Virus record (IMG/VR): IMGVR_UViG_3300037420_002497
Reading direction: 5' to 3' (one strand)
Source of the DNA: a virus
DNA: 64,000 nt
Both the position numbers and the translations under genes were made by a program. Below the pieces are notes generated by a model. The model was not told the DNA's origin and did not search any database. It saw nothing but the letters and a program-made list of their open reading frames with translations. This document shows positions 11,745 to 62,467 of this stretch, in pieces (the first letter of the stretch is position 1; every line of letters starts with the position of its first letter).

Positions 11745-11761
11745 CGTTGGACCGTCCAACA
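11745..11761. promoter_or_regulatory. dispersed palindrome site 1 (cGTTGGACCGTCCAACa), intergenic
   Basis: member of the 7-copy TGTTGGACNGTCCAACA family. Confidence 0.5.
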
Positions 11762-11795
11762 GCCGCCCCGTCCCCACCTACCGAGGAGCAAGACC

Positions 11796-12290
11796 ATGAG
11801 CACCACCTGGACCCCCATCGGCGGCCTAACGGAGAACCCCGGCGCGTGGAGCGACAACAACGGCGGGTTCATCTTCGTCGCCCGAAACGACGATGGCGTG
11901 ATCCGCCGGCAGTTCCGTCCCCACCCCTACCAGGGCGAGCCCTACACGCTCTACACCGGCGACCCCAAGGACCAGGGCGGGCCCAATGTGCCCGATGGCG
12001 CGGTCGCATTCCGGTCGCCGGAAAAGGCCGCCGCCCACCGCCGCAAGCTGGAGGAACAGGAAGCGCTCAAGGGTGTGACTTGGACGGCATCCGGGACGGT
12101 CAGGACAAAGGCCGCGAGCGTTGACGCCGCCATTCAAGCGGCGGCCGAGCATCTGCGCTATCGGCTTGATGGCGGCAGCGCCAGCGTGCGCGTCGATGGC
12201 GTGCTGGCCGCAGACATCGAGTGCTCTTACGCCACCGGCTGGGCCTTCAGGGTCGAGCGTCACAGCCAATGGGCCAAGAAGCGCGCCTGA
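11796..12290 (+). CDS. hypothetical protein (164 aa)
   Basis: GAGGAGCAAGACCATG start context. Confidence 0.55.
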   Translation: MSTTWTPIGGLTENPGAWSDNNGGFIFVARNDDGVIRRQFRPHPYQGEPYTLYTGDPKDQGGPNVPDGAVAFRSPEKAAAHRRKLEEQEALKGVTWTASGTVRTKAASVDAAIQAAAEHLRYRLDGGSASVRVDGVLAADIECSYATGWAFRVERHSQWAKKRA

Positions 12291-12320
12291 CCCCTTCCGC
12301 CGCTGCCCAGGAGCCACGCC

Positions 12321-12704
12321 ATGAGCAAGCCACGCCACGAGCACCGGCTGCACGAGCTGGTACGAAACGTCACCCAGGCGCAGGCCGACGCCTGGGCCAA
12401 GCGCTGCGACCGCAGCTTCGCGTTCTGCATTGAGCTGCTGGGCCTGTCCGTGGAGCGCCACGGGCTGGACTTCTGCGAAGCCTGGGCCGCTCGCCTGGAG
12501 GAGCGCTTCCAGGAGCTGGACGATGCCGCGTGGCGCGAATACTGCGCCGCCGATGACGCGTTCTGGGCCCAGCAGGAGCACACCATGCCCAGCTATCAGG
12601 ACTGGCTGCGCGACCAGGAGCCCGACCGACCCATCAGGGTGGACAGCTGGGCATTCGACCGGCACATGGAGCTGCAGCGCGAGCGCCTGGACGGCTACCG
12701 CTAA
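12321..12704 (+). CDS. hypothetical protein (127 aa)
   Basis: CAGGAGCCACGCCATG start context. Confidence 0.55.
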   Translation: MSKPRHEHRLHELVRNVTQAQADAWAKRCDRSFAFCIELLGLSVERHGLDFCEAWAARLEERFQELDDAAWREYCAADDAFWAQQEHTMPSYQDWLRDQEPDRPIRVDSWAFDRHMELQRERLDGYR

Positions 12705-12750
12705 ACCCACCCCTTCCCCGCTCACCCACAACACCCACAGGAGCCACCCC

Positions 12751-13185
12751 ATGGAAACCGTCACCCGCGACACCATCACCACCCAGACCCTGAGCGCCGA
12801 CGCCCTGCGCGAGCTGGTGCTGCTGGGCCTGAAGGCCAAACGCCCCAACGACCCCGTCATCGAGCTGCTGGAGATCAAGCCGGGCGAGCGCAACACCTAC
12901 GAGCTGACCCTGCGCCGCGCCCCGCAGGACGCCGACTTCGTGCGCGCGGTGCTGCACTTCCAGCCCGAGCACGTCGCGCAGGCACTCAACCAGCTGACCC
13001 AGGCGGGCCGGCTCTGGCTGGGCTTCACCAAGGCCGACATGGCGCGCGAGTACCGGCGCGCCTGCGCCCACACGCCGGGGCTGCTGCCCACCGGGGTGGC
13101 CGAGCGGCTGCGCCGGCTGGATCTGCAGCAGCTGGCGCAGTGCGCCCAAGCCTGCGAAGACGGCACCCCCTGGACCGGCGCCTGA
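12751..13185 (+). CDS. hypothetical protein (144 aa)
   Basis: CAGGAGCCACCCCATG start context. Confidence 0.55.
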   Translation: METVTRDTITTQTLSADALRELVLLGLKAKRPNDPVIELLEIKPGERNTYELTLRRAPQDADFVRAVLHFQPEHVAQALNQLTQAGRLWLGFTKADMAREYRRACAHTPGLLPTGVAERLRRLDLQQLAQCAQACEDGTPWTGA

Positions 13186-13201
13186 GCCCGAGGAGAGCAG
13201 C

Positions 13202-13468
13202 ATGCTGATCGGTTTTCTGGGGTGGTACGCCGAGGCGTGCCACAGCGCCAACTTCGCCGACCGGGGCACCCGCTACAACGTGCTCCACATCCTGGTGCCC
13301 AGGCTGGCGCGCGAACGGCGCGAGCTGCTGCAGGGGCTGGCCCAGCAGCGCAAGCACAGCCGCCCGCTGCCGCCCGAGTACCGGCGGCTGGTGCTGGAGG
13401 ACGTGGCCGACTGCCGCCGCGCCATCCAGGCCGCCCGGCGCCGCGCCCGGGAGCACGGCCATGGGTGA
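13202..13468 (+). CDS. hypothetical protein (88 aa)
   Basis: GAGGAGAGCAGCATG start context. Confidence 0.45.
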   Translation: MLIGFLGWYAEACHSANFADRGTRYNVLHILVPRLARERRELLQGLAQQRKHSRPLPPEYRRLVLEDVADCRRAIQAARRRAREHGHG

Positions 13469-13658
13469 GCTGGACGCCGCCCGCGAGCGGCTGCGGCGCG
13501 AGGCCCGGCTGCGCTGCGCCGAAGCCCTGCTGCGCCTGGGCGACCAGGGCAACGGCCCCGTGACGGTGCTGCTGTACGAGCTGCAGCGCATCCAGCGCAT
13601 GGCGCCGCACGAGCTGCTGGCGCAGCGCGCCCCCGAGCCCGAGCCGCAGCTCCTCTGA
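13461..13658 (+). CDS. hypothetical protein (65 aa)
   Basis: overlaps the upstream gene by 8 nt; a terminator follows. Confidence 0.4.
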   Translation: MGELDAARERLRREARLRCAEALLRLGDQGNGPVTVLLYELQRIQRMAPHELLAQRAPEPEPQLL

Positions 13659-13676
13659 CCCCTCCCGCCCCGCCCG

Positions 13677-13700
13677 CCCGGCCGACGCCGGGCTTTTTTT
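13677..13700 (+). terminator. rho-independent terminator
   Basis: stem CCCGGCCGACGCCGGG followed by TTTTTTT. Confidence 0.7.
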
Positions 13701-13737
13701 CGTCCGCGCGCGACCCCCTTGAATGCGGGGACAAATA

Positions 13738-13768
13738 CTTGCGCAGATAGGCGCGCCGCCTATATGAT
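13738..13768 (+). promoter_or_regulatory. promoter-operator copy 5
   Basis: TTGCGC, then the palindrome at about 13746-13762, then TATGAT. Confidence 0.55.
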
Positions 13769-13845
13769 GTGTCCATCGCAGCAAACAAAGCAGCGACGCC
13801 GAAACAGCCTCCCGGCGCCAGGAGGCAGATCCCAGGAGCCACACC

Positions 13846-14763
13846 ATGTACGAAGCCATCACCCCCGCCGCCCGTTTTGGTCGCGACGCCACGGTGATCC
13901 GCAAGGACCGCGCCCTGACAACCGATGAGCTGCGCGCCGTGGTCCCGTCCCTGTTCGCCCCAGGCGCTCACGAAAGCCGCTCGCAGCGCTACACCTACAT
14001 CCCCACCATTGATGTCCTGAACGAGCTGCGCAAGGAGGGCTTCATGCCCTTCAAGGCGATGCAGTCCAAGTGCCGCGACGTGTCTAAGCGCGAGTACACC
14101 AAGCACGCGCTGTGGCTGCGCCACACCTCGCAGTACGACCGGGGCCAGCTCAAGCAGGTGGGCGATTCGGTGCACGAGATCGTGCTGCTCAACAGCCATG
14201 ACGGCACCAGCGCCTACCAGATGAAGGCCGGCGTGTTCCGCTTGATCTGCACCAACGGCATGGTGGTCAGCGACGGCGCGGTGCAGGACATCCGCGTGCC
14301 GCACAAGGGGGACGTGGGGCATGAGGTGATGCGCGGCGCTTTCGAGGTGCTGGACGGCTTCACCCGCGTGGTGGGCCCCAAGGTCGAAGACATGCGTCGC
14401 ATCACGCTCAGCGAGGAGGAGCAGACCATCATGGCCGACGCCGCCCTGATGCTGCGCTTCGATGACCCGAGCCGGCCGGCGCCCGTCACCGCCAACGACA
14501 TCAACGTGCCGCGCCGCTGGGAGGATCGGGGCAACAGCCTGTGGCTGACTGCCAACCGCTTTCAGGAGAACCTGACCAAAGGCGGGCTGGATGGCCGCAA
14601 CGCGCGCGGCAAGCAGATGAAGACCCGCCCGGTGCAGGGCCTGGATCGCGACGTGGGCCTGCAGTCGGCGCTGTGGCAGCTCACCGAGCGCATGCGTGCC
14701 CTCAAGAACGGCGAGCCCATCCCCGAGATGGCGCGCCCGGCTGAGGATCTGGTCGCCGCCTAA
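13846..14763 (+). CDS. DUF932-family protein (305 aa), a family typical of plasmids and ICEs
   Basis: motifs YTYIPT, WLRHTSQ and LLNSHDGTSAY...RLICTNGMV recognised from memory of the DUF932 family. Confidence 0.65.
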   Translation: MYEAITPAARFGRDATVIRKDRALTTDELRAVVPSLFAPGAHESRSQRYTYIPTIDVLNELRKEGFMPFKAMQSKCRDVSKREYTKHALWLRHTSQYDRGQLKQVGDSVHEIVLLNSHDGTSAYQMKAGVFRLICTNGMVVSDGAVQDIRVPHKGDVGHEVMRGAFEVLDGFTRVVGPKVEDMRRITLSEEEQTIMADAALMLRFDDPSRPAPVTANDINVPRRWEDRGNSLWLTANRFQENLTKGGLDGRNARGKQMKTRPVQGLDRDVGLQSALWQLTERMRALKNGEPIPEMARPAEDLVAA

Positions 14764-14818
14764 GCAGTCCGGCCCGGCCGCCGCGCCGGGCCCTTCCATC
14801 ACCACCCCGGAGAGCGCC

Positions 14819-15103
14819 GTGAGCACGATCAAATTTTTGACCCTGGAACACCTGCGCGTGATCCTTGGCACCGCCGCCGCGATCGCAAAGAGCCCGTCGC
14901 GGCGTGGCGCCGGGTGGCTGCCCGCAGCCATCACCAGCAGCGTGCCGCGCCGCACCGGCGGCGAGGTGGGGCGCTGGGACGACAACGCCGAGGCGCGCCG
15001 CCTGGACACGGACGCCCGGCGCGCCCTGGACGCTGGCGACCGCCTTGGCGCCGCCAGCATCCTGAGCAAGCTGCTTGAGCTGCAGCGCGGCGCAGGACGA
15101 TGA
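14819..15103 (+). CDS. hypothetical protein (94 aa), GTG start
   Basis: GGAGAG sits 5 nt upstream of the GTG; a GC hairpin plus the CCCTTCC motif lie upstream. Confidence 0.4.
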   Translation: MSTIKFLTLEHLRVILGTAAAIAKSPSRRGAGWLPAAITSSVPRRTGGEVGRWDDNAEARRLDTDARRALDAGDRLGAASILSKLLELQRGAGR

Positions 15104-15447
15104 GCAAGCCGCCCCGCAAGCAGCTGGTGACGTACCGAGAAGGCCGCAAGGCCCGGTGCCAGCACAAGAGCCCCTGCAGCGACTGCCCCTGGAGCCGCAA
15201 GGCGCTACCGGGATGGCTGGGCGGCGAGCGCGCCCAGGAGTGGCTGCGCATCGCGCACGGCGAGGACACGGTGGAGTGCCACACGCTGCACGGCGCGCAG
15301 TGCGCCGGCATGGCGATCTACCGGCGAAACGTGGTCAAGAACCCGCGCAACCCCGAGGCGCTGCGACTGGAGGCTGACCGCGAGACCGTGTTCGCCACAC
15401 CGATCGAGTTTCTGGACCACCACACGCTGACAAAGCAAGGAGATTGA
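15100..15447 (+). CDS. Cys-rich hypothetical protein (115 aa)
   Basis: ATGA stop-start overlap with the upstream gene; CSDCPW motif. Confidence 0.5.
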   Translation: MSKPPRKQLVTYREGRKARCQHKSPCSDCPWSRKALPGWLGGERAQEWLRIAHGEDTVECHTLHGAQCAGMAIYRRNVVKNPRNPEALRLEADRETVFATPIEFLDHHTLTKQGD

Positions 15448-15448
15448 C

Positions 15449-16036
15449 ATGGCAACTTGGCTTGGCTCTCGCGCATGGCACTGCGGCAACCCCGAGTGCC
15501 CCGAAGGCGGCTGGCACAAGGCGAGCTACGAGCACGACACCGCCACCGACACCTTCACGGTGGACGAATACTCGGACGGCAAGACCGAGGAGATAGATGA
15601 GGGTGAGGTGCCCGGCCAGCTGGCGCTGGATGCCTCGTGGATGGCGTACAGCATCGACGTGGCCCGCACCGGCGCCGACCCGCTGCACGCCTTCCCGGTG
15701 CCCCGCACCAACCCCACCGCCGAGTGGTGGGAAATCTGCGTGCAGCCGGCCCCCAACGGCATGGCCAACCTCCTGGGCGCGCGCCCGTTCGGCGCCCAGA
15801 CAGCCACGGCACCGCTGCCGCTGTGCGTTGCCGAGAGCCTGGGCGTGATCCCGGACACCGGCACGCTGCGCACGCCCTGGGCCCAGCTGCAGGTCGCCGG
15901 GCCGCCGCTGGTCGCCAACCAGTGGCACCTCGTCCAGCTGATGGTGCAGCGCGATCGCCCGGCCGAGCAGGTGGAGCACGAGCTGAAGCTGGCCGCCTGC
16001 GACTTCATCGCCCAGCGGCGCAACGCCAAAGCCTGA
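15449..16036 (+). CDS. hypothetical protein (195 aa)
   Basis: starts immediately after the previous stop codon. Confidence 0.55.
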   Translation: MATWLGSRAWHCGNPECPEGGWHKASYEHDTATDTFTVDEYSDGKTEEIDEGEVPGQLALDASWMAYSIDVARTGADPLHAFPVPRTNPTAEWWEICVQPAPNGMANLLGARPFGAQTATAPLPLCVAESLGVIPDTGTLRTPWAQLQVAGPPLVANQWHLVQLMVQRDRPAEQVEHELKLAACDFIAQRRNAKA

Positions 16037-27539: not shown

Positions 27540-28463
27540 TCACGCTGCAGCTCCCGCCAGCCGGAAGATGGAGGACTGCGGCACCGGCATGCGCGGCGGC
27601 GGCTCCCGCCAGCGCCGGCCGCTGACGATGTCGCGCACCGTGACCGGCCCCAGCCCCGTGCGGGCCACGATCTCGGGGGCGGCCACGCCTTGCGCCTTGA
27701 GCAGGCGCACCTCGCGCGCCAGCTCCATGGTGCAGAAGCTGCGTTGGCGGCGCATCGTGTCGGCCCGCTTGGCGTTGGTCTCGGGGCGGCCCATGACGCC
27801 CTGCTGGTGCAGCCAGCTCATGTGCTCCGAGCGCGTCATCGCCTTGAGGTGGCGCAGGCACAGGCGGTTGCCGCAGGCCGGCGCGATCGTGAAGCCATCG
27901 GGGCTGCGCCCGTACATCTCGCGGTACACGCGGTTGCGCACGTCGATGTGCCCCTGCACCGGGCGGCCCCACTTGTTGGTCTCGCGCGTCCACAGCAGGC
28001 AGCGCCCGACGTGCCGGGCCAGCGTGGTGGGCGAGCTGTCGGAGCGCTCCACGCGCTCCCGCAGCCACACCTCCAGCCACTCGCGGCGCGCCTGGACGTG
28101 CGCGTCCTGCAGCGGCTCAAGCAGCGAATCCAGCCACTTCTGGCGCTTGGCGCGCTGCCCCGGGGTCTGCAGATCCAGCGCGGTGATGAGGCGCGGCTTG
28201 GCCTTGCTCTCGACCCGGGCCTGCTCGATCACCTCGGCCGCCTCGATGGCGGCGCTGAGGGCGGTCTTGGGCGTGGCCGGCTTGGCGGCGGCCGGGGCGG
28301 CGCAGCCCGGGCAGTGCCACCACGTCTTGTCCACGCGCTTCCAGCCGGGCCCTTCCAGGCGGGGCTGGTGGCACTTGTCGCACAGCCGGGTGAACAGCTG
28401 CGCGGGCGCGGAAAACGCGATCCGGCGCTCCGGGGCGCCTGTGGCGGATTCGTAGTTTCTCAT
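27540..28463 (-). CDS. HNH endonuclease-domain protein with N-terminal zinc finger and C-terminal HTH (307 aa)
   Basis: CGNRLCLRHL is an HNH_3-like motif; CDKCH...WHCPGC is a zinc finger. Confidence 0.55.
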   Translation of the reverse strand: MRNYESATGAPERRIAFSAPAQLFTRLCDKCHQPRLEGPGWKRVDKTWWHCPGCAAPAAAKPATPKTALSAAIEAAEVIEQARVESKAKPRLITALDLQTPGQRAKRQKWLDSLLEPLQDAHVQARREWLEVWLRERVERSDSSPTTLARHVGRCLLWTRETNKWGRPVQGHIDVRNRVYREMYGRSPDGFTIAPACGNRLCLRHLKAMTRSEHMSWLHQQGVMGRPETNAKRADTMRRQRSFCTMELAREVRLLKAQGVAAPEIVARTGLGPVTVRDIVSGRRWREPPPRMPVPQSSIFRLAGAAA

Positions 28464-29251
28464 CGGGTCTGGGGAGTCTTGGACCGGGCCTCGCGCAGCT
28501 CGCGCGCCTTGGCCGCCGCCTCGGCGCGCTGCTGGGGCGTCATCTCGTCGGCACGCAGGTACTGCTGGGTCCGGTCGGCATCACGGGAGGGGACGGTGGG
28601 GGCCGGGCCGGCGGGCAGCGAGCCCTGGTGCAGACCCTTGGCTTGCAGGGCGGCTTCTTCGCGCCGCTTGGTCACGATGGCCAGGGCGTAGGCAAAGCCC
28701 CGGCGGCGCTCGGCCGCCTCGCGGGCGGCGCCGACGAACTCCTCTTGCGTGGCGCCGGACTGCAGCAGCATCAGCAGCCCGGCATGCCCGGGGTTCACGT
28801 CCTGGCAGCCCACCTGCCGCATGGCCCGGCACACCAGACCGGCCTGGGTCGGCACCACGCGCTGGTCGCCCGTGACGGGGCTGTTGGACGGTCCAACAGG
28901 CGCGTCCGCCTCGGGCAGGCGGTGCTCGTCGAAGCGCGGGATGACGACGCCGCCACCGTCCGCGCGCAGCCAGTCAATGGCCACCAGCGCCTCGGCAAAC
29001 CCGGGGATGCCCGTCTTGCGGTCGATCTGGCGTGCCGGCAGATTCGGCAGCTGGCCCTGGCGCCCGTGCCGGCTCACCGCCGCCCAGAGCCAGTAGAGCC
29101 CGCCGATGACGTGCGCCTCGGCACAACCCGTGACCTCGCACAGGGCGGCCACGCGGGGGTCATCCCACAGGTTCGCGCGCATGAAGATCCCCGGGCCGCT
29201 CACGCCGACCCCCGCGCACGAAAGACCCGCTGCATGGAAAATTTCCCGCAA
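28460..29251 (-). CDS. hypothetical protein, possibly replication-associated (263 aa)
   Basis: second gene of the early operon after the Cro-like gene; basic C-terminal tail; contains one copy of the 17-bp palindrome. Confidence 0.4.
   Translation of the reverse strand: MREIFHAAGLSCAGVGVSGPGIFMRANLWDDPRVAALCEVTGCAEAHVIGGLYWLWAAVSRHGRQGQLPNLPARQIDRKTGIPGFAEALVAIDWLRADGGGVVIPRFDEHRLPEADAPVGPSNSPVTGDQRVVPTQAGLVCRAMRQVGCQDVNPGHAGLLMLLQSGATQEEFVGAAREAAERRRGFAYALAIVTKRREEAALQAKGLHQGSLPAGPAPTVPSRDADRTQQYLRADEMTPQQRAEAAAKARELREARSKTPQTR
28882..28898. promoter_or_regulatory. dispersed palindrome site 2 (TGTTGGACGGTCCAACA), inside a CDS
   Basis: perfect 8-1-8 palindrome. Confidence 0.5.
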
Positions 29252-29333: not shown

Positions 29334-29347
29334 ACCAATGGCTAAAC
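29334..29347. promoter_or_regulatory. operator-like site O1 (ACCAATGGCTAAAC)
   Basis: related to O2, O3 and O4. Confidence 0.4.
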
Positions 29348-29383
29348 ATCAGGCTCATGGATGCAGGCACGCCGTTCGCTCCG

Positions 29384-29674
29384 TCACGCCGTTTGCGCGG
29401 TCTCCGCAGGGAGGCCGGGCGCCCCAGGACTGCCGATCAGCTCAGGCCAATGGATCGGCCAGTCGAGCGGGCGCAGCTTCCAGCGCGGCACCTGCCCGTT
29501 GGTTGCGCGCTCCACCTCGGCGCAGCGATACAGGGGAACGGCCTTCCACCCCTTTTCGTCGCGCTGCTTCTTCCACCGACTCACGACCACCGGGCTCACC
29601 CCCAGCTCGCGCGCAAGACGGGCTGCAAGGCCGCGCTCGGGCTGCATGAGGTACTGCCGGATGTCCATTTCCAT
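29384..29674 (-). CDS. YdaS/Cro-like HTH regulator (about 96 aa; a GTG at 29716 would give 110 aa)
   Basis: LARELGVSPVVVSRWKK...VPLYRCAEVERATNGQV...LRPLDW resembles YdaS/Cro-family proteins. Confidence 0.55.
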   Translation of the reverse strand: MEMDIRQYLMQPERGLAARLARELGVSPVVVSRWKKQRDEKGWKAVPLYRCAEVERATNGQVPRWKLRPLDWPIHWPELIGSPGAPGLPAETAQTA

Positions 29675-29685
29675 GGGCCAAAAGT

Positions 29686-29701
29686 TTAGCCGTTGGCTTA
29701 A
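29686..29701. promoter_or_regulatory. operator-like site O2 (TTAGCCGTTGGCTTAA)
   Basis: imperfect palindrome 12 nt upstream of the cro-like ATG. Confidence 0.45.
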
Positions 29702-29774
29702 CTTCCCCGAAGCCACGGGATTCGCTTCCCCGGCCCGTCAGCGATCCACTGGATACAAGTCCACTTGAATCAAG

Positions 29775-29787
29775 TAGCCAATGGCTA
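29775..29787. promoter_or_regulatory. operator-like site O3 (TAGCCAATGGCTA, perfect 13-bp palindrome)
   Basis: in the divergent intergenic region, 14 nt upstream of the repressor-like gene. Confidence 0.5.
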
Positions 29788-29800
29788 TCAAAATCGCGCC

Positions 29801-30351: not shown

Positions 30352-30657
30352 GTGCTTAACGTTCGGCGCCGGACATCGGCCGATGGCCGTCACCGAAGGA
30401 TCACCGTGGGCGAGACGAAGAAGCAGCTGCGAGCCGAGGACATCGGCTCCAAGGTCGATCAACTCCTGGAGGGCATCGACCTCCGAGAGCTGCAAGGCGG
30501 GGGCGGCGACCCGGGCGGCGACTACCGCAGGGCGCCCGTCTTCGTCATCGTCGGGGACAACAACACGATCAATGTGCCCAGCGCCTGCGCCGGCTGCGCC
30601 AAGGCGCCCCGGGTCGTCGAGGTTCCGACCATCCAAGGGGTTGGACTGTCCAGCTAG
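30352..30657 (+). CDS. hypothetical protein (GTG 30352, or GTG 30409 with a GAAGGA RBS)
   Basis: TATTAT -10-like hexamer upstream; a terminator lies downstream. Confidence 0.3.
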   Translation: MLNVRRRTSADGRHRRITVGETKKQLRAEDIGSKVDQLLEGIDLRELQGGGGDPGGDYRRAPVFVIVGDNNTINVPSACAGCAKAPRVVEVPTIQGVGLSS

Positions 30658-36747: not shown

Positions 36748-37094
36748 CCGCCGACAACCCCTTCGCGCAACTGGTCCGGGTGTGCCTGCGCGGTCACGCC
36801 GGGCGCGCCCCGGAGGCCCGGGTGGAGCGGGACAACACGCCGATTCCGCCGCTCGATCCCAAGCCCCGCAAGGGAACGATCGGCCCGGCCATGGTGCGGC
36901 TGCTGGAGCAGTACCACCACCGCGAGCTGAGCACCGAGCAGCTGGCCGCCGCCGTGGGACTGGCCAGCCTCGCCGATGTCTGGGGGCTGCTCAAGCAGGC
37001 CCGCAAGACCGGCCGCGTCGTGGTCGCGCGCGGCCTGTGGCGCATCAACCCCGACTGGACCAACAACACGAAAGCCCGCCATGACGACGAATGA
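36744..37094 (+). CDS. winged-helix-like protein, paralog of the upstream gene (116 aa)
   Basis: shares the N-terminal NPFAQL(V/L)R motif and an HTH-like segment; ATGA overlap with the upstream gene. Confidence 0.5.
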   Translation: MTADNPFAQLVRVCLRGHAGRAPEARVERDNTPIPPLDPKPRKGTIGPAMVRLLEQYHHRELSTEQLAAAVGLASLADVWGLLKQARKTGRVVVARGLWRINPDWTNNTKARHDDE

Positions 37095-37548
37095 CCCCCA
37101 GGCCCAGGCCATCACCGAGGAGTGCTGGTCGCACGACGGCGAGACCTTCGACTGCCAGTCGCTGGGCGAGCTGCTGGACAACCATGGCGACGAGCTGGCG
37201 CCCGGCGACACGGTGTATGTGGGCACCGCCCACCGCCCGCCGCTGGAGAAGCTGATCTACGTGGACGACGTGCTGGAGCCCATGGGCGAGCGCGCCTACG
37301 AGATCGTGGGCGAGCACGCCGAGGACTATCCCGAGGTGTCGCAGGAGGCCAAGGGCGAGCTGCTGGCGCTGCTGCTGGGCTGGGCCCGCAAGCACGCCAT
37401 GCCGAATTTCTGGACCGTGCGCGGTGTGCGCGAGTACGTGCTCAGCGAGGAGGATCTGGCTGTTGGACCGTCCAACAGCGAGCTGCCGCCCGAGCTGTAC
37501 GCCCAGTCCCCGCTGGATGCGGTGGACGCCGCGCTGGGGGCCGAGTGA
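37081..37548 (+). CDS. hypothetical acidic protein (155 aa)
   Basis: 14-nt overlap with the upstream gene; contains one palindrome site. Confidence 0.5.
   Translation: MTTNDPQAQAITEECWSHDGETFDCQSLGELLDNHGDELAPGDTVYVGTAHRPPLEKLIYVDDVLEPMGERAYEIVGEHAEDYPEVSQEAKGELLALLLGWARKHAMPNFWTVRGVREYVLSEEDLAVGPSNSELPPELYAQSPLDAVDAALGAE
37461..37477. promoter_or_regulatory. dispersed palindrome site 3 (TGTTGGACCGTCCAACA), inside a CDS
   Basis: perfect palindrome. Confidence 0.5.
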
Positions 37549-41684: not shown

Positions 41685-42167
41685 ATGAGCGACGAAAAGA
41701 TCCCGTACAACCCGGTGGCCATCTGGTACATGCGCAACGACCGCACCTCGCTGCAGCTGCCGCTCAATGTCGAGCGGGCGTTGGAGCTGCTGCGCATCGA
41801 GCGCGAGAAGGGTCACTCGCATGGAATGCTGTGCTCGCAACACCCCGAGCTGCGCGGCAGCATCATCCAGGCCCGAGGCGTGGAGTGCTGGCAGGAATTT
41901 GAAGCGCTGGCAGACGAATGGCTGGCGCGCGCCGTGATGCTGGGCGCGCAGGCCGAGGCGCAGCTCAACAGCACGGCGCACCTGGAGCTGCTGGACCAGC
42001 TGGCCATGCATTCCGGCATCGACGCCGACTTCGCCCTGCGCATCTGGGGCGGCGACCAGCGCGCGCTCGCCACCGACGCCGAGGCACTGGACGGCTTCCT
42101 GGCGACCTGGGCCATGCTGGAGTACCGCAAGGCCCGCGTGCGGCTCCAGGTGAGGTCCGCGCAATGA
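41685..42167 (+). CDS. hypothetical protein (160 aa)
   Basis: ORF inside the gene run. Confidence 0.5.
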   Translation: MSDEKIPYNPVAIWYMRNDRTSLQLPLNVERALELLRIEREKGHSHGMLCSQHPELRGSIIQARGVECWQEFEALADEWLARAVMLGAQAEAQLNSTAHLELLDQLAMHSGIDADFALRIWGGDQRALATDAEALDGFLATWAMLEYRKARVRLQVRSAQ

Positions 42168-42427
42168 GCCCCGCCCTGGACCACGCCGCGAAGGCGCTGG
42201 ACATCGTGCGCCGCGCCATCGGCGAGATCCTGGGCATGCCGCCCGAGGACGTGAAGCCCGAGCAGCGGCTGCGCGCCGACCTGGACTGCGACGAGGTGGA
42301 CCTGATCGAGACGGTCTACCTGATCGAGCTGGAGGCCGACATCGAGCTGGCCGACATGGACCTGATGGAAATCCAGACCGTGGGCCGACTCATCGAGCTG
42401 ACGGTGCTGGCGCTGGAGACTGTGTGA
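42164..42427 (+). CDS. acyl-carrier-protein-like small acidic protein with Glu at the phosphopantetheinyl-Ser position (87 aa)
   Basis: LRADLDCDEVDLIETVYLIELEADIEL aligns with the ACP motif [23 protein letters not shown]. Confidence 0.4.
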   Translation: MSPALDHAAKALDIVRRAIGEILGMPPEDVKPEQRLRADLDCDEVDLIETVYLIELEADIELADMDLMEIQTVGRLIELTVLALETV

Positions 42428-43848: not shown

Positions 43849-44225
43849 GAGACGAAAACCACAAGCCGCTGCCCAACGCCGTCGAGGCCATCAAGAACGC
43901 CGTGGCGGCCCTGCGCGCCGCACCCAAGCACCTGACGTTGGCACAGAGCCGCGCCCTGCTGGAGCTGGAGCATGTGCTGGCGCAGCGCGCCCTGCCTGAG
44001 TTCCACTGGCTCGGCGACTCGCTGGACCAGCTCAGCGGCACCGCCCGTTGGACCACCAAGGACGGCTACGGCGTGGCCGTGCGCTTCCCCACGTTCCAGG
44101 CCGCCTGGGACGTGAGCAACGCGGTCACCACGGCCTATCAGCTGGGCGAGCGCGCCGGCATGGCACGGCTGATGGCCGAGATCCAGCCCGCGCTGGACAA
44201 GTGGAAAGGCCTGCACCGCCTATGA
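43845..44225 (+). CDS. hypothetical protein (126 aa), TTG start
   Basis: TTGA overlap with the upstream gene. Confidence 0.4.
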   Translation: MRDENHKPLPNAVEAIKNAVAALRAAPKHLTLAQSRALLELEHVLAQRALPEFHWLGDSLDQLSGTARWTTKDGYGVAVRFPTFQAAWDVSNAVTTAYQLGERAGMARLMAEIQPALDKWKGLHRL

Positions 44226-44734
44226 AGATCGTCATCGTCGCCGCCGTGGCCAGCAACGGCGTGATCGGCCGCCAGGGGAAGCTGCCCTGGCACCTACCGG
44301 AAGACCTGCGCCACTTCCGCAAGCTCACCGAGGGCGCTGCCGTACTCATGGGCCGCGCCACCTGGGACAGCCTGCCGGCGGCCTACAAGCCGCTGCCGGG
44401 GCGGCGCAACGTGGTGCTGTCGCGAGCCGGCGAGTGGGCCGAGGGAGCCGAGGTGGCCAACAGCCTGGAGCTGGCGCTGACGCTGCTGGCGCGCGAGCCC
44501 GTGGTCTACGTCATCGGCGGCGCGCAGCTCTTTGCCCAGCTGCTGCGGCAGGCCGACGAGGTGGTGCTCACGCAGATCGACCGCGCCTTCGACGGCGACA
44601 CGCACTTTCCGATGGTGCAGCTGGAGGCCGAGCTGAAGCACCGCTTCGACGGCCTGCGGATGCAGACCTTCATGGCCGAGAAGCCCAACGACTTCACCTT
44701 CTCCATCACCACGTACCGCCTCAAGCCGGCATGA
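44222..44734 (+). CDS. folA: dihydrofolate reductase (170 aa)
   Basis: MKIVIVAAVASNGVIGRQGKLPWHLPEDLRHFRKLT, VLMGRATWDSLP and VIGGAQLF are canonical DHFR motifs. Confidence 0.8.
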   Translation: MKIVIVAAVASNGVIGRQGKLPWHLPEDLRHFRKLTEGAAVLMGRATWDSLPAAYKPLPGRRNVVLSRAGEWAEGAEVANSLELALTLLAREPVVYVIGGAQLFAQLLRQADEVVLTQIDRAFDGDTHFPMVQLEAELKHRFDGLRMQTFMAEKPNDFTFSITTYRLKPA

Positions 44735-47598: not shown

Positions 47599-48828
<1,230 letters not shown>

Positions 48829-56430: not shown

Positions 56431-56433
56431 GCC

Positions 56434-57596: not shown

Positions 57597-58199
57597 ATGA
57601 AGATGAGACAGCGAAAGGCGCGGTACTGGCGCCGCCTGTTTGCCCGTCTGGACAACTGCGAGGTCTGCAAAGGCTGGCGCGGCGGCGTGCGCGGCAATGA
57701 GAACCGGGTCGATGGCGTCGTGATGTGTGACGCCTGCACCTCGGACCACCAGCGGCCGGGCTTGGTCGCCACGGCAGGCGAGTTCCTGGGGTGCGAGGCC
57801 CCCCTGCCCGACTGCATGAACCCGGACCTGTGCGCCACGCTGGGCGCGTGCATCGGCATGTCGCGCAGCGCGATTGCGGAGCGGGAACTGGCCGCGAGCT
57901 TGGCGAAGGGTCTGCGTGAGGTTGGAGAGCACGCCGAGGGCAAGCTGGCCCTGAAAGAAACGATGGTGCAGGGGCCGCACGTCGAGGGCGACAAGAGCAT
58001 TGCCGTCTGCCATGAATGCCGCGAGGTCGTGGATACCACGCTCAAGCGCCGCGACGTGCCTTTCAGTGACGGGAGCGGCGTGGTGCGCGACATCCTGGCC
58101 GCCGTGTGCGACGTGTGCGGCAGCGTGGTTGCGATCCCGGCGTGCTCGGCACCCACCATCAAGGCGGCCCGGGAGGCCCAGGCAAAGCCCGCCTCGTGA
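57597..58199 (+). CDS. zinc-ribbon protein (two CxxC pairs at each end), about 200 aa
   Basis: AGGGGTG RBS; CEVCKG...CDAC and CHEC...CDVCG motifs. Confidence 0.5.
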   Translation: MKMRQRKARYWRRLFARLDNCEVCKGWRGGVRGNENRVDGVVMCDACTSDHQRPGLVATAGEFLGCEAPLPDCMNPDLCATLGACIGMSRSAIAERELAASLAKGLREVGEHAEGKLALKETMVQGPHVEGDKSIAVCHECREVVDTTLKRRDVPFSDGSGVVRDILAAVCDVCGSVVAIPACSAPTIKAAREAQAKPAS

Positions 58200-58205
58200 A
58201 TCCAG

Positions 58206-58222
58206 CCTTGGAATTAGCCCAC
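58206..58222 (+). promoter_or_regulatory. upstream motif CCTTGGAATTAGCCCAC (copy 2)
   Basis: matches 57562-57577. Confidence 0.4.
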
Positions 58223-58242
58223 ATATCAAAGAGGAAACCGAC

Positions 58243-58488
58243 ATGGAACATGAGTTCAGCCTGCTGTTCAGGCTTCCCCCCGGGGCCGACGACATGCGCA
58301 AGATCATGGACGCACTGCTGAAGGCCGAGTGCACGGACGCCCTGGTTGGCTTTGGCAACATCGACAAAGCCGAGCTGTCGCTTGACTTCATCCGCGAGGG
58401 CGAGTCACCCGAGGCAGCCCGCAAAAGCGCCATCAATGACGTGCTGCGAGCACTGCCTGGGGCGCAGCTACTGGAGGAGCACCGTTGA
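58243..58488 (+). CDS. hypothetical protein (81 aa)
   Basis: AGAGGA RBS. Confidence 0.45.
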   Translation: MEHEFSLLFRLPPGADDMRKIMDALLKAECTDALVGFGNIDKAELSLDFIREGESPEAARKSAINDVLRALPGAQLLEEHR

Positions 58489-58982
58489 GCAAGCTCACCG
58501 AACTGGAGAAAGAGATCGTCCGCATCGCCGAGGAGATCAACAGGGTTGGCGACCTGTGCCACCTCGTTGACTACGACCCGGACATTGGCCAAGTACCTGA
58601 GCACTTCAGGCCCAATGCCGAAGTGCTGGCGCTGGTCAAGCAGTTGCTGGCCGACACCAAGACCAACGCCGCGACCGTCATCAAGGCGGTCGCCGAGTAC
58701 GGCAAGCGCTTCGACAACCCGAACGGCCTGCCCACCCCGTTCAGCGCCGGCTTCTCGCTGGCGTGCGAGGAGATCGAGGTCCGGCTGCTTGGCGAGCGCA
58801 CCGACCTGCCGCCTTTCCCGCGCATGACGCCTGAGCAGGTGCAGCAGTGCATCCAGGAGGCGGACAAGACCAGTGGCGCCTATCAGCGCACGCCCTGGGC
58901 CACCTTGCTGGTCTACATCGTTGAGGACGCACTCGCCAAGGCATGGGGCATCACGCTACCGACCACGGAGACCAAAGCATGA
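58485..58982 (+). CDS. hypothetical protein (165 aa), TTG start
   Basis: GGAGGAG lies 5 nt upstream of the TTG. Confidence 0.5.
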   Translation: MSKLTELEKEIVRIAEEINRVGDLCHLVDYDPDIGQVPEHFRPNAEVLALVKQLLADTKTNAATVIKAVAEYGKRFDNPNGLPTPFSAGFSLACEEIEVRLLGERTDLPPFPRMTPEQVQQCIQEADKTSGAYQRTPWATLLVYIVEDALAKAWGITLPTTETKA

Positions 58983-59233
58983 GAGCCAAGCTGATCGGTG
59001 GCCCACTACACGGACAGAGCGTGTTCGTTCATGCCTTGAAGCAGGGGCAGCTGCAGAGCCAGCATGCGTTCTATCGGTACGACGGCACGTTGTACGTACA
59101 CCGAATGTGGATCGACCCCGAAGGGCGCTACGTCCTGGTGCTGGTGGACGCCAGCCTGGATCTGGGCGAAGCCTCCGAAAAGATCCGGCAGGCGATGGAG
59201 CCGAACGCCACGCAGCTTCGGCGGGTGGCTTGA
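58979..59233 (+). CDS. hypothetical protein (84 aa)
   Basis: ATGA overlap with the upstream gene. Confidence 0.45.
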   Translation: MRAKLIGGPLHGQSVFVHALKQGQLQSQHAFYRYDGTLYVHRMWIDPEGRYVLVLVDASLDLGEASEKIRQAMEPNATQLRRVA

Positions 59234-59246
59234 CCCGGGGGCCATG

Positions 59247-59290
59247 GTTCACATTTAGTTCACTCTCGGTTCATTCTGTGTTCTATACTA
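59247..59290 (+). repeat. iteron-like cluster B: four GTTC repeats at 11-bp spacing ending in TGTTCTATACT
   Basis: GTTCAC at 59247, GTTCAC at 59258, GTTCAT at 59269 and GTTCTA at 59280; last 20 nt nearly identical to cluster A. Confidence 0.65.
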
Positions 59291-59333
59291 GGTGCGACGG
59301 CAGCACGGGGCTGCCTCCACCGGAGAACCGCAG

Positions 59334-59588
59334 ATGGATACGGAACTGGAGCAGCTGCGCCGCACACTGGATGCCATCCGGCACCGCGCGCAGTGCACCG
59401 ACACCGGCATGGGCGCGGACATCCTCAAGATCCTCGCCGACGCGCCTGTTGGATCGTCCAACAAGGCGCTGACGCCCGAGGAGCAGGCGGCGCTCAAGTG
59501 GGCGCTGGAGCAGCAGTTCCAGTCGGTCTCGGCGCGCTATGCCCGAACGCTGGCGAAGCTCGTGCAGCACCTCTACCCGCAGCCATGA
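59334..59588 (+). CDS. hypothetical protein (84 aa)
   Basis: GGAGAA RBS; contains a palindrome site. Confidence 0.45.
   Translation: MDTELEQLRRTLDAIRHRAQCTDTGMGADILKILADAPVGSSNKALTPEEQAALKWALEQQFQSVSARYARTLAKLVQHLYPQP
59447..59463. promoter_or_regulatory. dispersed palindrome site 4 (TGTTGGATCGTCCAACA), inside a CDS
   Basis: one mismatched arm position. Confidence 0.45.
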
Positions 59589-59620
59589 ACTACCAACAAA
59601 GGGAGATCCCCATGCCCCGG

Positions 59621-60019
59621 AGCAAAGCGCTCCTCACCCAAGAGCAGTTCGATGCCGCCATCCGCCAGGGTGGCGTCATGAAGGACCACAACATCGAGCT
59701 GGCGCGCCAGATCCTGGTGCTGGGCGTGCCGAACAACGCTGCGGCCAAGGCGGCCGACGTGCTGCCATCCCAGGCCAGCACGATCGTCAAGCGGGTGCTG
59801 CAGTACCACCAGACCGCCCTGACCCTGAAGAAGACCGCCGCGCAGTTCATGGCCGAGAAGCCGCCGCGTGAGCAGGTGATCGAGGCGCTGCGCCCCGAGC
59901 TGCTGAAGCTGCACAAGGCCAAGTACACGGTCGAGCAGCTGATCGAGTTCCTGGCGGCCAATGACGTGCACGCGAACCGCAAGGAAGTCCTCGCGATCAT
60001 CGAAGGGAGCAACCCGTGA
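59621..60019 (+). CDS. hypothetical protein upstream of parA (132 aa; an alternative ATG lies at 59585)
   Basis: AAGGGAG RBS lies 6 nt upstream. Confidence 0.45.
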   Translation, partial: SKALLTQEQFDAAIRQGGVMKDHNIELARQILVLGVPNNAAAKAADVLPSQASTIVKRVLQYHQTALTLKKTAAQFMAEKPPREQVIEALRPELLKLHKAKYTVEQLIEFLAANDVHANRKEVLAIIEGSNP

Positions 60020-60846
60020 GCAAGACCCTCAAGAGCCTGATGCTGGTCGCCCAGAAGGGTGGCGTGGGCAAGACCGCGATCGCCACGCTGCTGGCGCACT
60101 ACCTCGCCCTGCTGCGCGGCAAGCGCGTGCTGGTGATCAACCTGGACCACCAGAAGAACCTCGTGCGCCCGCTGTCGCAATCCGGCAAGGTCACGATGTC
60201 GGCCATCACCAGCGACAAGCTGCTGACCGACCCGGCCGCCGATGTCGAGGCCGCGCCCTACGTGCTGGTGCCCGGCGACAAGGACGCACTGGAGAGCCTG
60301 GAGCGCCAGCCCGACCGGCACAACGCCTTCGCCGGCAACTTCCGTGCGTTCCTCAAGCGCATGGAAGGCCGCTTCGACGTGGTGATCGTGGACACCAACC
60401 CGAACCCGGACATCCGCGTCCTGGCCGCGATGGTCAGCATCGACTACGTGCTGGCGCCGATCCAGCTCAACCAGGAGAGCATCGACGGCATCGCCGACCT
60501 GTTCAACGGCAAGCGCGTGGGGATCGGCCGCATCCGCGCCACGCTCAACAAGCAGCTCAAGTTCCTGGGCATGCTGCCCAACCTCGTGAAGCCGGTGCCG
60601 TTCCAGCGCACGAACCTGGAGAAGCTGCTGGCCGTGCCCGAGTACCGGGCGCAACTGATGTCGATGGTCGATGACCCGACCGAGATCAGCCAGCTGGCCC
60701 GCATCCCCGACCGCACCGTGATCGCCGAGATCCAGGCCAGCGGCAAGGTGCTGTGGGAGGTGAAGGACAAGACCGCCGCGCGCGACGCCTGGGCCGAGAT
60801 CAAGCCGGTCATGGACCGCATCGCGCATCTCATGGGCGTGCAGTGA
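60016..60846 (+). CDS. parA: ParA/MinD-family partition ATPase (276 aa)
   Basis: deviant Walker A AQKGGVGKTAIA; GTGA overlap with the upstream gene. Confidence 0.75.
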   Translation: MSKTLKSLMLVAQKGGVGKTAIATLLAHYLALLRGKRVLVINLDHQKNLVRPLSQSGKVTMSAITSDKLLTDPAADVEAAPYVLVPGDKDALESLERQPDRHNAFAGNFRAFLKRMEGRFDVVIVDTNPNPDIRVLAAMVSIDYVLAPIQLNQESIDGIADLFNGKRVGIGRIRATLNKQLKFLGMLPNLVKPVPFQRTNLEKLLAVPEYRAQLMSMVDDPTEISQLARIPDRTVIAEIQASGKVLWEVKDKTAARDAWAEIKPVMDRIAHLMGVQ

Positions 60847-60884
60847 TTCGCCACCACTGACGCCCCCACCGACAGGAGCCACAC

Positions 60885-61916
60885 ATGAGCATCGACCTTT
60901 CGCAATCCCTGGACCTGGGCGACCTGAGCGCCACCGCCGCCACCGGCGAGCCGCTGAAGCTGTGGGCCGCCACCATCCGGCCCAGCCGCTGGGCCAACCG
61001 CCACGAGCTGAGCTTCCTGAGCCCGGAGTTCAACGCCCTGAAGGAGGAGATCAAGAACGCGGGCGGCAACGTCCAGCCGATCAAGGTGCGCCCGCTGGCG
61101 CAGCCCGAGGACGGCGTGGAGTACGAGGTGGTGTTCGGCCACCGCCGCCACCGCGCCTGCCTGGAGCTGGGCATCGAGGTGGCCGCCGTGGTCGAGGCCG
61201 TGGACGACCAGCATCTGTGGGCGCAGATGGAGCGCGAGAACCGCGCCCGCGAGCCGCTGTCGGCCTACGAGCAGGGGACGATGTACCAGCGCGCGATGGA
61301 CGAAGGGCTGTTCCCGTCCATCCAGGCGCTGGCCAAGGCGATCGGCCGCAGCGCGGGCGACATCAGCAAGGCCATCTCCATCGCCCGGCTCCCGCCCGAG
61401 GTGGTGCAGGCCTTCGGCTCACCCCAGGACATCGGGTTCCGCGACGCCAAGCCGCTGAAGGACGCGGTGGAGGCGGCGCCCGAGGCGGTGGCCCAGGCCG
61501 CCCGCGCGCTGGCCGCCGTGCCCCAGGCGCTGCCGCCGAAGGTGGTGGTGCAGCGGCTCGCCGCCGCCGCCGGCATGGCCGATGACGACCAGAACGAAGC
61601 CGAGGAGGAGCCGGCCGAGGCGGCTGTTGGACGGTCCAACAAGGCCAAGGCAGCGCCCGCGCCGAGCCCGGCAGCGCCAGCTGTTGGGCCGTCCAACAAG
61701 CCCGCGCCGGCCCCGAAGGCGGCCCCGGTTGCGCACCTGCGGGTGGTGGTCGAGGTCGGCGAGGAGCTGATGGAGCTGGTCACCGACTGCCGCCCGAAGC
61801 GGGGCCTGATCCCGGTGCGGCCAGTGGCCAGCGATGAGGCGCCGCAGTACCTGCCGGCGGGCAAGGTGCGCATCGTCCGTGCCGAGGCCCAGGCGCCCCG
61901 CACGTTTACGGGTTAA
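60885..61916 (+). CDS. parB: ParB-like partition protein (343 aa)
   Basis: N-terminal ParB/Srx-like motif VVFGHRRHRACLELG; follows parA; CAGGAGCCACACATG start context. Confidence 0.65.
   Translation: MSIDLSQSLDLGDLSATAATGEPLKLWAATIRPSRWANRHELSFLSPEFNALKEEIKNAGGNVQPIKVRPLAQPEDGVEYEVVFGHRRHRACLELGIEVAAVVEAVDDQHLWAQMERENRAREPLSAYEQGTMYQRAMDEGLFPSIQALAKAIGRSAGDISKAISIARLPPEVVQAFGSPQDIGFRDAKPLKDAVEAAPEAVAQAARALAAVPQALPPKVVVQRLAAAAGMADDDQNEAEEEPAEAAVGRSNKAKAAPAPSPAAPAVGPSNKPAPAPKAAPVAHLRVVVEVGEELMELVTDCRPKRGLIPVRPVASDEAPQYLPAGKVRIVRAEAQAPRTFTG
61625..61641. promoter_or_regulatory. dispersed palindrome site 5 (TGTTGGACGGTCCAACA), inside the parB 3' region
   Basis: perfect palindrome. Confidence 0.5.
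61682..61698. promoter_or_regulatory. dispersed palindrome site 6 (TGTTGGGCCGTCCAACA), inside the parB 3' region
   Basis: one mismatch. Confidence 0.45.
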
Positions 61917-62049
61917 CCCGGGAAGTGAGCGCACGCCCCGGGAAAACTCCGGGTAACTCCTACCGTTCAAGGGCGGCATCCTTGCTCGCGATGATTCCGT
62001 TGCCGTTTAGCGGCAACAATGCCCACCGCGAAAGAAGAAAGGATGTCGC

Positions 62050-62382
62050 GTGAGACTGAAGCCAGAAGAAATCTTGAAGTGCCTGGGGCTGGTCGTGCCG
62101 GCCGAGGGGTTGGAGATCGACGCCAAGGAGGCGCCTATCCACATTGCGGCGTTGACGCTGCTGGGGCGCACGCTGCGCATGCGGGCGATTCCCGACCGTG
62201 AGCTGATGGGGCTGTCGGTTGGGATCGCCGTGCTGTACGACAAGTGGTGTGGCCGCCCGGTCGAGGAGCTGACCCGGGACGTGGACCTGTTGCGGACCAG
62301 CATCGAAAAACTACTGATCGACAACTACTTCCTGGGGCCCGAAGCCATCCGGCGACCGATCCAGGAGCAGCCGCAGGGGTAG
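62050..62382 (+). CDS. hypothetical protein (110 aa), GTG start
   Basis: AAAGAAAGGA RBS; a terminator follows. Confidence 0.45.
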   Translation: MRLKPEEILKCLGLVVPAEGLEIDAKEAPIHIAALTLLGRTLRMRAIPDRELMGLSVGIAVLYDKWCGRPVEELTRDVDLLRTSIEKLLIDNYFLGPEAIRRPIQEQPQG

Positions 62383-62412
62383 GGCCCTGACGCGGCATCT
62401 TCCGCAAACCAG

Positions 62413-62433
62413 CCGCCCCGAAGGCGGCTTTTT
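62413..62433 (+). terminator. rho-independent terminator
   Basis: stem GCCGCCCCGAAGGCGGC followed by TTTTT. Confidence 0.65.
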
Positions 62434-62450
62434 CACGCCTGCCGGGCGGC

Positions 62451-62467
62451 TGTTGGACGGTCCAACA
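62451..62467. promoter_or_regulatory. dispersed palindrome site 7 (TGTTGGACGGTCCAACA), intergenic after the terminator
   Basis: identical, including flanks, to site 5. Confidence 0.5.

Follow-up and report, generated by a model that had tools for sequence, protein, structure and literature searches.

A dispersed 17-bp palindrome as the putative parS site of a ParB encoded by a circular hybrid of tailed phage and conjugative plasmid

A 64,000-nucleotide stretch of viral DNA (IMG/VR record IMGVR_UViG_3300037420_002497; the whole of this stretch is referred to below as the window) carries dispersed copies of the 17-bp palindrome TGTTGGAC-N-GTCCAACA together with genes for the partition proteins ParA and ParB. 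The palindrome, with the core GTTGGAC-N-GTCCAAC, is very probably the parS site of the element's own ParABS system, at which ParB would be loaded for partition. An earlier sequence-only reading of the window had taken the copies for candidate scattered centromeres recognized by a cognate ParB, or else for global regulator sites, and the proposal of centromeres is supported by three lines of comparative evidence: co-occurrence of the palindrome with divergent ParB proteins, symmetric changes in its two arms among related loci, and covariation between a residue of the ParB helix-turn-helix (HTH) and a base of the half-site. The element itself is a circle of about 122.7 kb in which a conjugative-plasmid backbone appears joined to a temperate phage.

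The palindrome and its association with ParB

A pattern search of the window returned exactly the seven copies that had been listed in the sequence-only reading, four of them as exact 17-mers (28882, 37461, 61625, and 62451) and three with a single mismatch, at 11745 (CGTTGGAC..), 59447 (..GGATCG..), and 61682 (..GGGCCG..). The accompanying assertion that such a palindrome would not occur seven times by chance in 64 kb was upheld by dinucleotide-preserving shuffles of the window (n = 100), which gave an expectation of 0.01 copies and none of which reached seven; since the window has a G+C content of 64-71%, a 16-base palindrome containing A and T is even less likely to arise by chance. Allowing three mismatches yielded one further window copy, at 30639 (GGTTGGACTGTCCAGCT), where the 15-bp core has one mismatch. 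A count across the complete genome, which had been proposed as a check, found ten copies of the core with no more than one mismatch over the readable 97.1% of the element (119 kb), against approximately 0.02 expected analytically from base composition. Nine of the ten have G or C at the centre, and the sequences flanking the sites are not conserved among copies.

Four copies lie within 1.6 kb of parB (60885-61916, plus strand). As had been described, two occupy the 3′ part of the gene, namely an exact copy at 61625-61641 (codons 248-252, VGRSN) and TGTTGGGCCGTCCAACA at 61682-61698 (codons 267-271, VGPSN), both in its Ala/Pro-rich linker, and a third, exact copy at 62451-62467 follows the next terminator, in intergenic DNA 18 bp past a terminator-like hairpin and T-run. 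The remaining four had been placed 3-50 kb away, which does not hold for TGTTGGATCGTCCAACA at 59447-59463; this copy lies 1.4 kb upstream of parB, within the gene that opens the par operon, where it may serve for autoregulation or loading. Some copies had also been placed inside unrelated coding sequences, as is true of 28882 and 37461; 11745 is intergenic. The latter, CGTTGGACCGTCCAACA at 11745-11761, has a perfect core and occupies the 58 bp between the end of a 62-amino-acid (aa) gene at 11737 and the start of a 164-aa gene at 11796. The exact copy at 28882-28898 falls at codon 96 of a minus-strand gene for a phage O-like replication initiator (28460-29182), in the linker between its domains, where it reads ..EADAPVGPSNSPV.., and the exact copy at 37461-37477 lies in a 155-aa gene (37081-37548), 29 codons before its end (..DLAVGPSNSEL..). 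The degenerate copy GGTTGGACTGTCCAGCT (30639-30655) supplies the final codons (VGLSS*) of a gene for 83 aa (30406-30657). Two core sites lie outside the window, at contig position 73,650 in an LPD7-domain gene and at contig position ~106,627 in the head-maturation protease gene. Half of the ten copies are more than 20 kb from parB. Placements relative to genes follow the gene calls supplied with the contigs.

The eight intragenic copies are all read in one frame, GTT GGA xxG TCC AAC, giving V-G-x-S-N, and all eight fall within low-complexity Ala/Pro/Glu-rich linkers or tails; the chance of one shared reading frame is ~(1/3)^7. Of the two peptides attributed to the palindrome by the sequence-only reading, VGPSNS agrees with the V-G-x-S-N found in every intragenic copy, whereas LLDRPT is read by none. 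The flanks of the intergenic copy at 62451 resemble those of the two parB-internal copies, 61625 on the left and 61682 on the right (62440-62480 compared with 61615-61715). In a virtual frame the copy reads AAVGRSNKPAP, which suggests that part of the parB linker was duplicated.

A blind scan of public metagenomes for the exact 17-mer retrieved 115 stretches, which is roughly the chance yield by a rough estimate, the total collection size not being stated. Ten of the 115, on unrelated contigs, encode ParB homologues (29-59% identity). Nine of these ten have the site in the 3′ part of parB or immediately behind the gene: in eight it falls within the parB linker and encodes GVGPSNT or GVGRSNT, and one (L016) has two copies immediately past the parB stop codon; in the tenth (L124) it lies outside a partial parB frame. 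The central base switches between G and C, and with it the encoded residue between Pro and Arg. Because this base is free and the palindrome was kept while the protein diverged, selection appears to act on the DNA rather than on the peptide.

Starting instead from the protein, 80 ParB loci were retrieved from genomes by ParB alignment, and the palindromes typed in them lie within ~2.5 kb of parB. Most of the loci carry two to nine palindromes of the 8-1-8 design, and 13 carry none. Both arms always change jointly across loci, giving approximately 18 site types, among them TGTTGAAC/GTTCAACA, GGTTGGAC/GTCCAACC, TGGTGGAC/GTCCACCA, and TGTTAGAC/GTCTAACA, as well as GTTCTAC/GTAGAAC, GTGGAAC/GTTCCAC, and GCTGTAC/GTACAGC. 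Long arrays were also seen: Ideonella paludis (L195) has nine TGTTGAAC sites, and GTTCTAC occurs six times in another locus (L205).

A scan of mutual information between all ParB columns and site type was confounded by phylogeny and was replaced by inspection of the HTH for each site type. Residue 159 of ParB, with which the predicted recognition helix begins according to the alignment to Spo0J, tracks base 5 of the half-site in 74 of 75 loci: Asp159 accompanies G in 37 of 38 loci (nine site types), Asn159 accompanies T in 14 of 14 (five site types), and Leu, Ala, or Met at this position accompanies A in 23 of 23 (three site types). His157 goes with the GGTGGAC, GGGGGAC, and TGTGGAC types. The association of Asn with T is found in two different helix backgrounds (GAQxGNVSTA and GADxGNVSRA) and so is not merely shared ancestry. 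Taken together, the blind scan, the symmetric arm variants, and the covariation of residue and base point to ParB as the reader of the palindrome.

The same comparison bears on the arrangement of sites around parB. In both of the closest relatives, L130 (Azohydromonas australica) and L131, the 17-mer is the same and occurs twice in parB and once downstream, which is the layout of 61625, 61682, and 62451 in the window, and some relatives have a copy ~1.5 kb upstream of parB that resembles 59447. On this comparative evidence the parB-proximal cluster is probably the ancestral centromere in this ParB family.

We propose that ParB would read each half-site with its HTH, and that the three copies in or just after parB, with the copy at the start of the operon, would constitute an ancestral centromere and autoregulatory cluster. 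By analogy with characterized ParB proteins, a dimer at parS would bind cytidine triphosphate (CTP), close into a clamp, and slide onto neighbouring DNA; the sliding ParB would build a partition complex, and the short ParA would move such complexes apart at cell division. The distal copies would be additional ParB-loading sites acquired in the disordered linkers of unrelated genes, most likely auxiliary centromeres that load ParB across a large replicon in the manner of the four inverted-repeat sites of phage N15, and local damping of transcription, if any, would be secondary. The distal copies come at intervals of roughly 20 kb, and together with the cluster they are spaced ~7-33 kb apart around the 122.7-kb circle, so that most of the element should be within reach of sliding ParB. 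Such spacing suits auxiliary centromeres as in N15 and equally permits long-range silencing of the kind exerted by KorB of plasmid RK2; the partition and regulatory readings are not mutually exclusive.

The par operon and the element that carries it

The par operon opens with an 84-aa open reading frame (ORF) without a family match (59334-59588, plus strand), the one that carries site 59447, followed by a 144-aa HTH protein with weak similarity to KorA/TrfB (59585-60019, plus strand). The latter scores 25.2 bits against PF16509, below the cut-off of 26.7, and its six best PDB matches are all RK2 KorA, although weak (E ~0.25). The third gene overlaps the second by 4 bp, ends 39 bp before parB, and encodes a 276-aa short ParA-type Walker ATPase (60016-60846, plus strand; AAA_31 79 bits, CbiA 52 bits) in which the Walker domain begins at residue 8, with no N-terminal DNA-binding extension. 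Just upstream of the operon, at 59240-59290, stand four GTTCA-containing direct repeats (GGTTCACA, GTTCACTC, GGTTCATT, and GTGTTCTATACT), which may be its operator or promoter; no consensus promoter was found at 59240-59290.

ParB, of 343 aa, comprises a ParB N-terminal domain (PF02195, 34.9 bits against a cut-off of 26.3), an HTH of the SopB type (PF18090, SopB_HTH, 34.1 bits against a cut-off of 27; the SopB structures 3mkw and 3mkz match residues 122-208), the Ala/Pro linker, and a C-terminal domain. Its predicted recognition helix is GRSAGDISKA, which includes Asp159. The motifs GHRRHRA and ERENR align with GERRYRA and VENLQR of Spo0J (1vz0), corresponding to the CTP motifs GxRRxRA and ENxxR, and their motif residues are invariant in alignment A1. 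A Pfam scan returned ParB_N, SoPB_HTH, and HTH_ParB only, and by these sequence matches the protein is placed as a generic member of the ParB/Spo0J/RepB family (TIGR00180, 104.3 against a cut-off of 58.45) for which Spo0J gives the best structural-sequence match.

Downstream of parB are a 110-aa ORF (62050-62382, plus strand), which lies between parB and site 62451, the terminator-like hairpin AGCCGCC-CCGAA-GGCGGCT with its T-run (62411-62433, plus strand; read by eye), small ORFs, and the genes for NikA and a relaxase. The last two, with a complete type IV secretion set (SLT, TrbC, VirB3, VirB4, TrbL, VirB8, CagX, TrbI, VirB11, and the coupling protein), lie downstream of the window, while upstream of its start are genes for terminase (TerL) and portal protein.

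The same ParB is encoded on the Joint Genome Institute (JGI) metagenome contig 3300037467|Ga0395902_0000093 of 122,796 bp, on which window position 1 corresponds to contig position 113,809 and window position 8988 to the contig end, the alignment then resuming at contig position 128. The contig ends overlap by 127 bp, and the element is therefore a circle of 122,669 bp. Four contigs of 50-200 kb are on record for ParB. For VirB4 there are seven, four of which fall in the same size range, and a one-off misassembly is therefore unlikely. The whole element was represented by the window, stretches L280 and L002, and the IMG/VR contig IMGVR_UViG_3300037420_002498, the last rebuilt by walking from L220, L213, L210, and L009. 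The 77-108 kb part is thus drawn from an IMG/VR contig of another sample, for which identity was 100% over the 5.8 kb that could be compared and was checked over that length only. The rebuilt contig adds a head protease, the major head protein, a tape measure of 1,815 aa, and an endolysin.

Four modules can accordingly be distinguished: the korA-like/parA/parB operon, the relaxase and type IV secretion genes, a phage-type immunity switch and replication region, and the structural genes of a tailed phage. Maintenance of the element as a plasmid, and possibly as a phage-plasmid, had been proposed from the window, and the 122.7-kb circle, parA and parB, the phage O-like initiator, and the complete tailed-phage module bear this out; the element may be a conjugative phage-plasmid. 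Its nearest named relatives are in A. australica, both for ParA (91% identity to the protein of L130, a conjugative-plasmid-like contig) and for VirB4 (81%), and the host is probably a member of the Burkholderiales. L130 shares the order korA-like, parA, parB, relaxase, VirB4, TrbL and has no phage genes within 10 kb upstream; the comparison suggests that in the element a backbone of conjugative-plasmid type has been joined to a temperate phage. Azohydromonas genomes contain at least five paralogous loci of this ParB family, each with its own palindrome variant, an arrangement that would fit co-resident replicons or elements kept compatible by ParB/parS specificity. A megablast comparison of window positions 55-64 kb with annotated phages and plasmids gave no match, and a search of IMG/VR for other phage-plasmids with this ParB clade gave one close relative (L221), whose palindromes are of a different design and so uninformative as to whether dispersal is general.

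Phage-type functions inside the window include, besides many small ORFs and a DUF932 gene, the replication-initiator-like gene at 28460-29182 (minus strand), which matches PHROG 2509/9474 over its N-terminal domain and around whose site no convincing iterons or origin-like repeats were found, and a CI/Cro-like divergent switch at ~29.4-29.9 kb. The switch (29335-29800) consists of a minus-strand gene for a 96-aa YdaS/Cro-like HTH protein and a CI-like HTH ORF on the plus strand from ~29800. Palindromes of the form TAGCC-N3-GGCTA occur in and around it, at 29335-29361, 29670-29696, and 29778-29790, and published gene calls seem to start the plus-strand CI-like gene too late. The early plus-strand region encodes an RtcB RNA ligase (47599-48828), a dihydrofolate reductase (44222-44734), and a PP-binding (acyl-carrier-like) protein (~42164-42427), with many ORFs lacking a family match as their neighbours.

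A further repeat family is found at 3959, 6607, 8041, 10464, 13748, and 17836, with a degenerate copy at 3219. Each unit has the 15-bp palindrome TAGGCGCGCCGCCTA in the spacer between a -35-like TTGCnn and a -10-like TATGAT (nine matches to the pattern against 0.01 expected), and each stands just upstream of a plus-strand gene in the array of small genes at 4-19 kb. Among possible repressors of these TAGGCGCGCCGCCTA units is the KorA-like protein.

Partition sites, silencers, or operators

The distal sites might instead serve mainly as places far from the par locus at which ParB clamps load before sliding to promoters, where with help from the KorA-like protein they would silence the replication, early, and structural genes of the phage, so that partition would be only one of two roles of ParB. 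Such a role is compatible with the sites being parS, and we regard it as possible though not probable. In its favour are an operon order (KorA-like HTH, short ParA, HTH-ParB) that is that of korA-incC-korB in RK2, the odd length of the palindrome with a G/C centre in nine of ten copies, and copies that lie inside genes and far from promoters, as do many operators of KorB (PMC11790492); moreover, 11745 lies among the six promoter-operator units (TTGCnn, TAGGCGCGCCGCCTA, TATGAT) that drive the 4-18 kb gene array, and in a ~95% identical relative (IMGVR_UViG_3300037423_002669) an extra intergenic copy, absent from the window, stands ~115 bp upstream of the unit equivalent to 17836. Yet the similarity to KorA is below the Pfam threshold, ParB lacks a KorB-specific domain, and no sigma-70-like promoter was found in the regions scanned, which were the three around 11745, 37461, and the par cluster (28882 lying outside the scan) and in which the same scans missed the hairpin and T-run at 62411-62433. 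Nor does any of the core sites fall in the 20 kb of relaxase and type IV secretion genes, the very operons that KorB controls in RK2; L130, a plasmid relative in which this KorA-like gene is also present, shows no distal sites within 10 kb, and the positions of distal sites turn over between close relatives. The fullest version of this idea, in which ParB has been recruited as an element-wide silencer whose clamps at some ten in-frame, gene-embedded parS sites act with the KorA-like protein and the TAGGCGCGCCGCCTA promoter-operators to couple segregation to repression of phage replication, early, and head genes, is speculative, and we hold it more doubtful still. If true, it would mean that a long-range circuit of the KorB type has evolved independently in a phage-plasmid, one combining tailed temperate phage, low-copy plasmid, and conjugative plasmid in a single element.

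The other explanations dispense with ParB. That the palindrome is the operator of a different element protein, KorA-like or CI/Cro-like, and adjoins parB incidentally is highly improbable: several HTH proteins are indeed encoded, and an autoregulator could act at 59447 within the par operon, but in most related loci the palindromes adjoin parB without a KorA-like gene or a short ParA (for instance beside Rep_3/long ParA/ParB), the covariation is with the HTH of ParB itself, and the switch region and early promoters have different palindromes of their own. No more can be said for conservation of the peptide V-G-x-S-N as a short linear motif of disordered linkers, with the DNA palindrome as its by-product. 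The common frame of the eight intragenic copies and their constant location in Ala/Pro/Glu-rich linkers or tails would be expected of such a motif; against this, two copies are intergenic, both L016 sites lie past the parB stop codon, the central residue may be Pro, Arg, Ser, or Leu while the palindromic bases stay fixed, and symmetric changes of the DNA arms in relatives give unrelated peptides such as CGPST and VAPCN. Equally remote is a selfish or structural repeat without a role in partition, such as a hairpin resembling repetitive extragenic palindromic (REP) elements or a restriction-modification target. It draws on metagenome sample ERZ1032871, where at least 11 contigs have the identical 17-mer repeated in intergenic DNA between G/C-rich flanks, with seven copies on one contig of 63 kb. 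There, however, the centre is A or T and the flanks are a G-run and a C-run (L018, L025, L051, L054, L065, L100, and others), the organism is unrelated, and the repeat is probably an unrelated REP-like element or regulator site, whereas eight of the ten copies on the element are inside genes, their centre is G or C rather than A or T, their flanks are not conserved, and they have a specific link to ParB. The peptide motif, the REP-like element, and the operator of another regulator were thus each rejected on the evidence counted against them. In five unrelated metagenome or viral contigs (L006, L019, L050, L075, and L122) additional GTCCAACA or TGTTGGAC half-sites stand in tandem beside the palindrome in an iteron-like arrangement.

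Several observations count against reading the palindrome as parS, or at least against reading the distal copies as auxiliary centromeres. The whole case for pairing ParB with the palindrome is built from sequence, and the count of sites covers 97.1% of the element, contig positions 73,843-77,383 (3,541 bp) lying outside it. No ParB gene was found in the retrieved ERZ1032871 stretches that have the same 17-mer. The 10-kb flanks of the 80 related loci contained no own-type site more than 3 kb from parB, so that dispersal is a feature of this element and not of the ParB family, and its benefit is something we infer. The ~95% identical relative keeps the copy in the protease gene, but at the equivalent of 11745 its copy is degraded (positions 9951 and 15452 of L279 correspond to 11745 and ~17800 of the window); with this degraded copy and the extra one described above, individual distal sites are not strictly conserved.

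Significance and comparison with known systems

Multiple parS sites for a single ParB are already well established, and the present finding fills in a family rather than overturning anything. What appears to be new is a family of parS consensus sequences with an apparent recognition code, the consistent in-frame embedding of sites in disordered protein linkers, and their setting in a hybrid of phage and conjugative plasmid. A full-text literature search for TGTTGGAC or GTCCAACA together with parS or ParB gave unrelated primer matches only. The palindrome would provide a concrete cognate parS for a large uncharacterized ParB clade of Burkholderiales mobile elements, which comprises 2,912 database proteins at E ≤1e-10 with several paralogues per Azohydromonas genome. 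The relation between residue 159 and base 5 (Asp/G, Asn/T, Leu/A) could allow incompatibility and specificity groups to be predicted and could be a source of orthogonal ParB/parS pairs with which to label DNA, while the 123-kb hybrid offers a natural system for asking whether extra parS sites serve the segregation of large replicons, gene silencing, or both.

One close parallel among characterized systems is that of the IncP-1 plasmid RK2, which has 12 dispersed KorB operators (OB, TTTAGCSGCTAAA) and in which KorB binds the centromere and also silences genes as a sliding clamp (PMC11790492). The element resembles it in gene order, a small HTH regulator being followed by a short ParA and then by a ParB-family protein that has an HTH and ParB-type CTP motifs, and in having some ten odd-length, mostly G/C-centred palindromes over a conjugative replicon, many of them inside genes and at a distance from promoters. 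It differs in that the site sequence is unrelated, TGTTGGAC-N-GTCCAACA and OB (TTTAGCSGCTAAA) having only the odd length and the G/C centre in common, in that the korA-like gene is separate rather than nested in parA and its similarity to KorA is sub-threshold, and in that its transfer-gene operons are free of sites. No KorB chain was found among the PDB matches of ParB at E <0.001, nor were KorB or KorB_C domains detected in it.

In common with chromosomal ParB/Spo0J and its parS (TGTTTCACGTGAAACA) the element has a ParB whose best match is 1vz0, a short ParA, multiple sites, and the outer bases TGTT...AACA, and in Bacillus subtilis one parS lies inside the parB/spo0J gene itself. The inner half-site, however, is GGAC rather than TCAC, the site is a 17-bp palindrome with an unpaired centre rather than an even one of 16 bp, and it is found on a mobile element in a family with many specificity variants. 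For the repABC plasmids of Rhizobiales (parS GTTNNCNGCNGNNAAC), RepB is the second-best NCBIfam match of ParB, although the score against TIGR03454 is 90.5 with a cut-off of 201.5. The parS sites of repABC plasmids have a GTT...AAC frame in which variable inner bases set specificity, and they occupy variable positions in or near the operon; the element differs in that it has no repC, its ParA is not RepA-like, and its site is of odd length.

The SopA of N15 is a long type-Ia ATPase with an N-terminal DNA-binding domain, whereas the ParA of the element scores 18.8 against the SopA model NF010259 (cut-off 725) and is not of this long type. Its ParB, on the other hand, has an HTH that matches the SopB HTH family, and N15 is likewise a temperate phage kept as a plasmid with dispersed repeats, to be compared with the ten core sites around the circular element. 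The centromere of N15 is described as several single inverted repeats (IR1-IR4), rather than one array, spread over the genome in regions of phage function (PMC7205306; Ravin and Lane 1999, as cited there). N15 differs in being linear, of 46 kb, and non-conjugative, and its repeats (GTGCGACC-NN-GGTCGCAC) are even in length and unrelated in sequence; the element in turn has a tight cluster of three sites at parB. As judged by these comparisons, the system would appear to work like KorB/OB of RK2 and SopB/IR1-4 of N15, while by sequence it is a member of neither.

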